From a virus, in the IMG/VR virus record IMGVR_UViG_3300010965_000002, positions 32,001 through 96,000 of that record: 64,000 nt of DNA; one strand, written 5' to 3'. Both the position numbers and the translations under genes were made by a program. This document shows, in pieces, positions 107 through 2,084 of the stretch. The stretch's first letter is position 1; each line of letters starts with the position of its first letter. The notes under the pieces are model-generated. The model searched no databases, was not told the origin of the DNA, and saw nothing but the letters and a program-made list of their open reading frames with translations.

Positions 107-805
107 TCACTTCTTTGTGTCTTCACGAGGAGACGTTTCAACCACGATCTTCGCAGCGCCCGCTTTTGCGATTGCTAGACGTTGACCAAAATCCAGCAAG
201 CCTTTTGCCTTATAGACGTTGACCGCTGTAGCAGCATCAATAGCCATACGAGTTTGTTCGTCTGGGATAGTAATGAACGTAATGCTGTTCAAATGCACAC
301 CACGCGATTCGAGGACTTTGTTCGCCTGAGCAAACAACTGATCTTCAAATGTCGAAGGATTGAAGTCCACAATGTCATGCTTCAAAGTGGCCTCGGTCAC
401 GATGTCGCGCAGGCGCACATCAATCACAACGTTCTCAGCCGTTTCAAAGGCCGACATCTTTGTGTTAGCCGCCGCGTCAGCCGCCGAACCAGACTTGCCG
501 AGGAACTTGGCTTCCTTGATGAACTTCAAGCCATCGACAATTTCGTAGTCATAGGCGATCTTGATCTTGACCAATACGTTGCCAGCGAACTGAGCTTGAA
601 ACTCCGTGTCACCTTGCATCGGATAGTCAGGCAACACAGTTTTGTACTCACACGTTCCAACAGAGGTTGGTACACGTTGACCTGCGGCCACCACAGTCCA
701 CGATACACCGCAGTCTGTAGTCACGAGGGTTTTGACATTGGAAGGCGCTCGATCACACGCCGCCAACAGAGCGATAACGCCCAAGAGAAGAATTTTCTTA
801 ATCAC
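107..805 (-). CDS. SPFH/Band-7-like lipoprotein
   Basis: Re-started at GTG 805 (GTGA overlap with upstream stop); lipobox-like LLAA-C after KK and a hydrophobic stretch; C-terminal part (RLRDIV...RGVHLNSITF..PDEQTRMAIDA) resembles Band-7 domain. Confidence 0.6.
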   Translation of the reverse strand: MIKKILLLGVIALLAACDRAPSNVKTLVTTDCGVSWTVVAAGQRVPTSVGTCEYKTVLPDYPMQGDTEFQAQFAGNVLVKIKIAYDYEIVDGLKFIKEAKFLGKSGSAADAAANTKMSAFETAENVVIDVRLRDIVTEATLKHDIVDFNPSTFEDQLFAQANKVLESRGVHLNSITFITIPDEQTRMAIDAATAVNVYKAKGLLDFGQRLAIAKAGAAKIVVETSPREDTKK

Positions 806-1017
806 GATGGAACCTTTCCAGAAAAGATTGAATAACCGAACTTGCCAAGCCAAAGGGCCAGCATCACACCTACAAAGACAGCCAGCGCCAGCAGCATAAT
901 GCTGATAATGCTAGACCCGTACAAACCGCCGTGCAGCACATAGGAACCAGCTTCGGTACCTATGTACACAACCAGCATCAACGCGATGAACATCACGATT
1001 GCGCCTATGAATTTCAT
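802..1017 (-). CDS. Small two-helix membrane protein
   Basis: GGAG then ATG at 1017; two hydrophobic segments. Confidence 0.65.
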   Translation of the reverse strand: MKFIGAIVMFIALMLVVYIGTEAGSYVLHGGLYGSSIISIMLLALAVFVGVMLALWLGKFGYSIFSGKVPS

Positions 1018-1038: not shown

Positions 1039-1084
1039 TGGTAGGCCGTGTTGGATTTGAACCAACGACCAAAGGATTATGAGT
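1039..1084 (-). pseudogene. 3' half (positions 31-76) of an interrupted tRNA(CAT)
   Basis: Minus strand ACTCATAATCCTTTGGTCGTTGGTTCAAATCCAACACGGCCTACCA: anticodon loop CTCATAA, T-arm GTTGG-TTCAAAT-CCAAC, 3' acceptor strand and CCA; pairs with the half at 1574-1604. Confidence 0.92.
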
Positions 1085-1161
1085 TGGTAGGCTAGGTCGG
1101 ATTCTAACCGACGATCAACGGCTTATGAGGCCGCTGCTTTAGGACTCTAAGCTACTAGCCC
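1085..1161 (-). tRNA. Complete tRNA(CAT), probably Ile2 (Met not excluded)
   Basis: GGGCTAG-TA-GCTT-AGAGTCCTA-AAGC-A-GCGGC-CTCATAA-GCCGT-TGATC-GTCGG-TTAGAAT-CCGAC-CTAGCCT-A-CCA folds into a full cloverleaf with encoded CCA; C4:G69, U12:A23 and A73 fit Ile identity. Confidence 0.9.
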
Positions 1162-1568
1162 TCACGGAAAATGTTACCTACTTGCCATCTTGACAGTTTC
1201 AAGAGCTTGGCAATATCTACAAAAGTGTTGCCTTGGTTACGCAACTTAGTAATACGTCTGTGCAAGTGCCTTGGTCTAGCATGTCCAGACTCCACTACTG
1301 CCTTTCTTCGATTTTTAATAGGTGTTAGTATTTGGAGATTGTCTATAGCGTCATTCGACTTGTCACCGTCAATATGGTCAGCTTCCTCGTGTTTGCCAAG
1401 GATGCGACCGTGTTTAACAGAGAGTTTGTACTTAGCCATCGTTATGGTTGTACGCCTTAGCGTGTAGCCAGCAAGGGGCACCAAACACACGTACCACCTG
1501 CATTCTTTCTTGTGCCATACTCGATAGCCTTTGTAACCGACAAATGGGTGTTTAAGAATCTTTGCCAT
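1155..1568 (-). CDS. HNH homing endonuclease with C-terminal HTH
   Basis: HNH_3-type motif EEADHIDGDKSNDAIDNLQILTPIKN; C-terminal HTH-like FVDIAKLLKLSRWQVGNIF; ATG at 1568 with AGAGG 5 nt upstream. Confidence 0.88.
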   Translation of the reverse strand: MAKILKHPFVGYKGYRVWHKKECRWYVCLVPLAGYTLRRTTITMAKYKLSVKHGRILGKHEEADHIDGDKSNDAIDNLQILTPIKNRRKAVVESGHARPRHLHRRITKLRNQGNTFVDIAKLLKLSRWQVGNIFREG

Positions 1569-1573
1569 ACTAA

Positions 1574-1604
1574 CCTCTGCTCTAACCAACTGAGCTAACG
1601 GCCC
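1574..1604 (-). pseudogene. 5' half (positions 1-30) of the interrupted tRNA(CAT)
   Basis: GGGCCGTTAGCTCAGTTGGTTAGAGCAGAGG: acceptor strand GGGCCGT pairs with ACGGCCT at 1043-1049; canonical D-arm; ends inside the anticodon stem. Confidence 0.92.
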
Positions 1605-1610
1605 TACGTG

Positions 1611-2084
1611 TTATCGCTTCAACGGATAGAAGATACCTTCGTGCTTTATCCGTGTCTTACATACGTCGCGTTGCAGTTTAACGTATTCGTGCAAAGGCAC
1701 CAGCGTTTCATTGTGCTGCACCAGATCATCGTAGTATGCCCACCAAGCGCCAGGCTCAAGCAGTTCAGCCGGAATGACTCCGGGACGAATACTACCTGTG
1801 ACATTCAGCTTGACTGACACCAACATCACTTCTTGGGTATGCCATTGCTTATGCGCATCAGGCTCCATATCCAGAATAGCTTGCTGGTGCATACCACAGC
1901 CTTCTGTGTTCGGCCCTTTAATCCAAGTGCTGTACCAACCACGCATCAAGTCGAACCCACGGCTGCTCTTGCATTCAGCTTCCGAGGATTCAATTCCAAC
2001 AATGATTTCTCTGTGAAGCTCTGGAACATCATCACTCCAGGGCGTCATACCCAAACCCTCAAAGAGGGCATCGAAACATAACAT
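1611..2084 (-). CDS. Hypothetical protein
   Basis: AAGGAG RBS; fits minus-strand gene tiling. Confidence 0.7.
   Translation of the reverse strand: MLCFDALFEGLGMTPWSDDVPELHREIIVGIESSEAECKSSRGFDLMRGWYSTWIKGPNTEGCGMHQQAILDMEPDAHKQWHTQEVMLVSVKLNVTGSIRPGVIPAELLEPGAWWAYYDDLVQHNETLVPLHEYVKLQRDVCKTRIKHEGIFYPLKR

Follow-up and report, generated by a model that had tools for sequence, protein, structure and literature searches.

The 64,000-nucleotide stretch of phage DNA analysed here (the window) contains a tRNA(CAT) gene that is interrupted by a 489-bp insert, and this insert carries an HNH endonuclease gene together with a second, complete tRNA(CAT), hereafter the cargo. The resident tRNA-Ile2 gene has been destroyed by the insertion. 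From comparison of the locus with its relatives, we consider the insert with good confidence to be a mobile homing cassette, in which homing proceeds free of an intron and overwrites a tRNA gene.

Layout of the interrupted tRNA gene

The window originates from the record of a 177-kb phage (about 72% complete), in which the capsid protein has 51% identity to its counterpart in Ralstonia phage phiRSL1. The 5' piece of the resident tRNA-Ile2(CAT) gene (1574..1604, minus strand, 31 nt, Sprinzl positions 1-30) and its 3' piece (1039..1084, minus strand, 46 nt, Sprinzl positions 31-76, including the anticodon and CCA) enclose the insert (1573-1085, minus strand), which separates Sprinzl positions 30 and 31 with zero bases deleted or duplicated at either junction. 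Rejoining 1604-1574 with 1084-1039 restores a tRNA of 77 nt that has the anticodon CAT and an encoded CCA and is recognized by ARAGORN as a full cloverleaf. The closest intact gene (in L063) matches the rejoined tRNA at 75 of 77 positions, and the 22-mer spanning the junction is intact in at least 119 IMG/VR stretches, so the split resident tRNA is not a product of chance. These results bear out the initial annotation, which had read the two pieces as positions 1-30 and 31-76 of one CAT cloverleaf and had described the insert as an HNH reading frame plus a second complete CAT tRNA; the only further content is a 5-nt spacer between the insert start and the HNH ATG.

The HNH gene (1155..1568, minus strand, 137 aa, ATG at 1568, stop at 1157-1155) is the sole open reading frame of the insert (1085..1573). 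It runs into the complete, Ile2-type cargo tRNA (1085..1161, minus strand), where its stop codon lies within the acceptor stem (tRNA nucleotides 5-7), and the insert terminates precisely at the cargo CCA. The final four nucleotides of the resident 5' piece, GAGG (1577-1574), are located 5 nt ahead of the HNH start codon and are likely to act as its Shine-Dalgarno site. An integrase is absent and no att core is duplicated at the junctions; no microhomology that might have assisted the initial insertion into a new site was found at either of them. Promoter and terminator counts at the locus were at chance level. The locus is flanked upstream by a gene for a 157-aa protein without assigned function (1611..2084, minus strand), which served to locate orthologous loci, and downstream by a 71-aa membrane protein gene (802..1017, minus strand), a slot whose content varies between relatives.

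Four further tRNAs and a tmRNA are encoded in the 177-kb record, which has no intact tRNA(CAT) other than the cargo. The tmRNA is situated ahead of the window (G000:C1:24391-24810) and is classified by ARAGORN as the permuted type; one is present in L003 too. Around C1:24036 there is a degenerate stretch resembling a tRNA.

The two tRNAs and the nuclease

tRNA-Ile2 reads AUA codons once the lysidine modification has been made by the host, and AUA accounts for 14% of the isoleucine codons of the source phage. The label given by ARAGORN was Met. According to published identity rules, a G3-C70 pair excludes Met and fMet, while C4-G69 and C5-G68 are typical of tRNA-Ile2 (PMC1635315). Both tRNAs have the CAT anticodon, G3-C70 and C4-G69, and the fifth pair is C5-G68 in the target and U5-A68 in the cargo. 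The two therefore look like the same isoacceptor, tRNA-Ile2, and the Met label was dropped.

Cargo and target differ at 22 of 77 positions, which are spread across all arms, with four in the anticodon stem; 14 of the 22 differences form seven compensatory stem pairs. The initial annotation was right that pairing is preserved, but it overstated the case in placing the differences exactly around the insertion site. The cargo has U19 and A56 instead of the usual G19 and C56. Among the tRNAs fetched, 393 combined C56 with a GG D loop and 24 combined A56 with GT, with zero cross cases; this covariation indicates that the tertiary elbow pair is retained, and the cargo thus looks functional. Cargo-type tRNAs with this odd elbow form a family that is common in phages without an adjacent HNH gene. 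U19:A56 in place of the near-universal G19:C56 was observed in the window (1085-1161), L137, L144, L180 and L187, and the class covers CAT as well as Arg(ACG) tRNAs, including those of phages CBB and Sugarland; our literature search retrieved no paper on such a phage tRNA class.

How the cargo might resist the nuclease can be approached through the clade of related HNH loci. Their targets vary at positions 27-30 (GAGG, TGAG), and the readable 3' pieces begin with A31. A C31-G39 pair is present in the cargos of all six readable loci whose HNH has the C-terminal helix-turn-helix (HTH) form (the window, L002, L003, L004, L015 and L192); of the 14 members of the cargo family that lack a nuclease, only 3 have it. 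The cargos of L001 and L010 retain A31-U39; the HNHs of both carry a zinc-ribbon tail, and that of L001 is frameshifted. Since the differences between cargo and target are not clustered at the insertion site and the targets vary at 27-30, resistance would more likely derive from the change of A31-U39 to C31-G39 and from the altered D loop.

The HNH reading frame matches Pfam HNH_3 (25.0 bits, cut-off 24.8) and phrog_14913 (E 2e-17), and the residues D64, H65, D67, N72, D73 and N77 of its HNH motif are invariant across nine homologues. Its predicted structure (pLDDT 87) consists of an N-terminal I-HmuI-like nuclease domain and a C-terminal three-helix HTH, the latter being replaced by zinc ribbons in some relatives. 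The best PDB match of the nuclease domain in Foldseek was I-HmuI (1u3e, probability 1.0, E 0.043), an HNH nickase whose gene, unlike that of the window HNH, resides in a self-splicing group I intron. Compared with the L002 homologue, 39 codons differ synonymously and 11 non-synonymously, which indicates that the HNH gene is under purifying selection. The overlap of reading frame and cargo is found also in L002, L003, L004, L159 and Pseudomonas phage HPP-Temi. Because the HNH stop codon lies inside the cargo stem, release of the cargo by RNase P would strip it from the transcript and leave a non-stop HNH mRNA, which might limit nuclease output.

The cassette and its alleles in other phages

Homologues with 52-92% HNH identity were read in their genomic context. 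A tRNA(CAT) overlaps the end of the HNH reading frame or lies at most 20 nt from it in L001, L002, L003, L004, L008/9, L010 and L015. The same arrangement had been set beforehand as a prediction for L192, where a tRNA(CAT) with C31-G39 was found 6 nt past the stop codon, along with a decayed 5' piece. HNH and tRNA(CAT) occur together at nine of nine readable clade loci, the window counted; the co-occurrence elsewhere that the initial annotation had proposed to look for was thus found in all eight others. More distant homologues with a tRNA at the end of the reading frame carry Thr, Ser, Asn or Ala instead of CAT. The eight intact HNHs with a CAT cargo fall on one side of a branch (support 82/94), and the clade loci are therefore related cases rather than independent trials. 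Cargo sequences diverge widely across the clade while the isotype stays constant, and the identities of HNH and cargo co-vary (rho 0.94 for five loci, the pairs of which are not independent).

Clear tRNA remnants are kept at five clade loci. The split layout recurs in L008, where the cargo is a different one and the 3' piece begins at the same A31. The 5' remnants of L001, L003 and L192 stop at about position 30; a search for the cassette at the same 30/31 site, likewise suggested initially, was in this way successful. L002 retains decayed remnants of both ends, the 5' one stopping in the D loop, and L010 retains heavily decayed pieces. L004 and L015 have HNH and cargo with zero tRNA remnants, which indicates that the unit also occurs free-standing. 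Protein P0265 has an N-terminal extension that translates a tRNA 5' piece (GSSVVRAGDS before the start Met), which suggests an Ile2 gene of the E. coli type that is occupied by the same cassette. Two further features were observed in this group: an inverted repeat brackets the cargo tRNA of L008 and lengthens its acceptor stem (L008:3445-3545), and a TROVE/Ro60 gene is located inside the tRNA cluster adjoining the L004 cassette (L004:926-2314).

Comparison of the locus with cultured phages by blastn gave tRNA-level matches only, searches with the Band-7 flank, and of viral and metagenome contigs with the HNH alignment, gave no additional loci, and patterns of the junctions and flanks matched IMG/VR by chance only or not at all. 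A search of genome contigs yielded one HNH-free cargo-type tRNA, in a MAG.

At the orthologous site, located through the upstream 157-aa gene, three allele states were found among relatives: uninterrupted, occupied and cargo-only. The uninterrupted alleles that the initial annotation had hoped for do exist, both in the stretches with an intact junction 22-mer and at the orthologous site itself, where L168 (syntenic, 69% nucleotide identity) has a single uninterrupted tRNA(CAT) of the canonical type. This tRNA is chimeric, with a mismatched acceptor stem (L168:10484-10556). Nearby, a tRNA-Pro-like 5' piece and, on the other side, an intact tRNA-Pro flank a PD-(D/E)XK gene (L168:13480-14058), an arrangement that is probably another such cassette. 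L165 and L167 (87% nucleotide identity) have the cargo only, identical at 77 of 77 positions, with the nuclease and the resident pieces gone; the gene downstream of this allele differs too. Each of its junctions lies in a short stretch that target and cargo have in common (5' side, 5 bp; 3' side, 8 bp). Since the cargo lineage tracks the nuclease, the cargo-only allele most likely arose through clean loss of the nuclease or through use of the cargo as template in the repair of a cut target. The patchy presence of the endonuclease, which is missing from L165, L167 and L168, is as seen for homing endonucleases.

Further sequencing runs were informative about the occupied and empty states. Contigs from two other studies (X2 and X6) carry the cassette across the 5' junction, and an X6 contig spans the 3' junction at 970-1158 with zero differences. 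In runs X7 and X13, both flanks and target-type tRNA ends are covered, with the insert nearly uncovered and no bridging contig, which suggests empty alleles in sister phages. The one joint listed (X6, 27-nt side) may stem from another organism. X7 is an RNA run, the contigs of which cannot demonstrate expression. Among the contigs obtained, none from a near-identical sister phage crosses an empty junction, and L168 is a distant relative.

Comparable arrangements were found outside the clade. In L159 (4706-5408), an unrelated 192-aa endonuclease (phrog_15137), followed by another tRNA(CAT), interrupts a cargo-type tRNA at 30/31, and L143:5832-5908 represents the empty allele for this insertion. 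In L151 (1500-1890), which belongs to a different phage lineage from L159, a group I intron follows the anticodon of a cargo-type tRNA. Two cultured phages have the nested layout with tRNA-Thr(TGT): Xanthomonas phage LucasX (L179:846-1560), with both pieces present, and HPP-Temi (L183), with the 5' piece present. Their HNHs are more distant relatives of the window HNH, and both loci are annotated merely as a CDS beside a tRNA. In Aeromonas phage P19 (L178:833-1424, OM339718, P19_0370), a distantly related HNH, which takes its stop codon from the anticodon loop, splits an Ile2-type tRNA(CAT) at 34/35 in the absence of any cargo. This split is unannotated in the record, and in the P19 relative vB_AdhaM_G2 the corresponding slot is filled by an intact Ile2-type gene. 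The P19 case shows that complementation is not required for viability. The initial proposal that the element is rendered harmless by complementation is consequently plausible for the window, where both tRNAs appear to be the same isoacceptor, but not obligatory.

Proposed intron-free homing and its alternatives

We propose that, during mixed infection, the HNH would nick or cut the uninterrupted tRNA-Ile2 gene of another phage near 30/31 and that repair of the break would copy the cassette in, with the flanking tRNA pieces serving as homology arms in the way exons do in intron homing. The diverged cargo, presumably uncut by the HNH, would provide the AUA-reading tRNA, so that splicing would be unnecessary. 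For its translation, the nuclease gene would rely on a ribosome-binding site in the broken 5' piece, and its stop codon is provided by the cargo stem. At a later stage the tRNA halves would decay and the nuclease could drop out cleanly, so that the cargo would take over as resident allele, the end state seen in L165 and L167; the cargo-type tRNA might then be open to other endonucleases or introns, as in L159 and L151. Whether such cassettes constitute a general third way for homing endonucleases into a conserved gene, besides splicing and a position outside it, in which a whole resistant copy of an RNA gene is carried and the site cycles from empty to occupied, cargo-only and re-invaded, is in our view an evenly balanced question.

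Phages are known to possess intron-free endonucleases tied to tRNA genes, and the cassette resembles them in this respect (PMC2330249; PMC2988022; PMC13096335). In related phages, tRNA genes are cut by SegB of T4/T6, which also spreads the flanking tRNAs (PMC2330249), and the genes of free-standing Seg/Mob endonucleases are intergenic and leave the target intact, a process called intronless homing (PMC2988022). One alternative is that a SegB-like free-standing endonuclease came to lie beside a resistant tRNA allele, the nesting being a passive recombination scar and the cargo a hitch-hiker. The activity of SegB, the loci without remnants (L004, L015), the survival of P19 with a split gene and no cargo, and the occurrence of the wider HNH family in tRNA clusters in many layouts would all be consistent with this. 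However, the insertion is intragenic and at the same position at independent loci, the cargo type always equals that of the broken gene (CAT in the clade, Thr in LucasX), and clade cargos have been replaced in sequence with the isotype retained; we consider this explanation unlikely. Membership of the Seg/Mob group itself was rejected, as the HNH is inserted inside a tRNA gene. SegB is a GIY-YIG enzyme with an intergenic gene, and the cut sites of free-standing enzymes lie at a long distance from the genes that encode them, whereas the window nuclease is an HNH protein encoded within its target and travels with one matching tRNA.

Selection might alternatively act mainly on the cargo, a diverged Ile2 tRNA that would evade a host anticodon nuclease or another tRNA-targeting defence, with the HNH as its vehicle. 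Sister phages have kept the cargo-only allele, tRNAs of the odd-elbow family occur widely where no HNH is present, and SegB has been reported to amplify tRNA against the Septu defence (PMC13096335). Against this, the clade cargos are very unlike each other, so they have no single protective feature in common, and no host or defence system has been identified for the source phage. As the main explanation it appears improbable, more so than a passive scar, although it is not exclusive of the homing-cassette reading.

That the insert is removed from the RNA like an intron and the pieces are ligated to a working tRNA is very improbable. Both pieces are perfect in the window, and pairing of the outer acceptor stem over the intervening insert is predicted with pair probabilities of 0.36-1.0, but group I and group II intron models gave no match to the insert even at E 5, in a search that detected the L151 intron as positive control, and the insert is too small for a ribozyme. 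Moreover, the pieces are decayed, mismatched or missing in L001, L002, L003 and L192, unlike those of archaeal split and intron-containing tRNAs, which are both conserved and rejoined. Group I introns in tRNA(CAT) genes share the target class, but there the tRNA is restored by splicing. An assembly artefact joining similar tRNA sequences, conceivable for a metagenomic record since tRNA genes confuse assemblers, can practically be dismissed, as contigs from two other studies (X2, X6) span the junctions and the layout recurs in L008 and in the cultured phage LucasX.

The homing cassette has partial counterparts beyond phage endonucleases. Endonuclease reading frames in fungal mitochondria carry a foreign C-terminus into atp6 of Allomyces and into atp6, atp9, cox2 and nad3 of Glomus (PMC3630166). 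They share with the cassette an unspliced intragenic insertion that brings a diverged substitute and strands the native part. In the fungal elements the substitute is an incomplete protein-coding end that lies upstream of the nuclease and is joined in frame to the native 5' part, yielding a hybrid gene, whereas the phage cassette has a whole, independent RNA gene downstream of the HNH and leaves both native pieces dead. In tRNA-dependent lysogeny of actinobacteriophages, a broken tRNA is complemented as well (PMC10865867). There an integrase brings an entire prophage into a host gene that is essential, unlike the 489-bp cassette in a phage gene, with neither integrase nor att repeat. The principle that harmlessness is achieved by a carried substitute is thus already known from these two systems. 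The initial annotation had known of no named element with this layout, and for the layout itself this stands: our literature search, which covered few subscription papers, retrieved no paper on a nuclease and a whole tRNA nested in the tRNA gene they replace.

The locus is an unusually clean case, with both tRNA halves perfect, an intact HNH under purifying selection and three allelic states at one site. A31-U39 versus C31-G39 constitutes a directly testable candidate resistance pair, and relatives in the cultured phages LucasX, HPP-Temi and P19 mean that homing can be assayed. Such cassettes escape standard annotation, where they are shown just as a "tRNA-Met" next to an HNH gene. The tRNA genes of large phages and their divergence are usually credited to codon bias or to escape from host anticodon nucleases. 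The present locus adds a testable third cause, namely that selfish nucleases overwrite these genes. If the general cycle outlined above is true, arms races between nucleases would rank among the main causes of the odd and rapidly diverging tRNA genes in large phages, the tRNA alleles of which would be continually replaced, and nuclease expression would be limited by maturation of the cargo tRNA.
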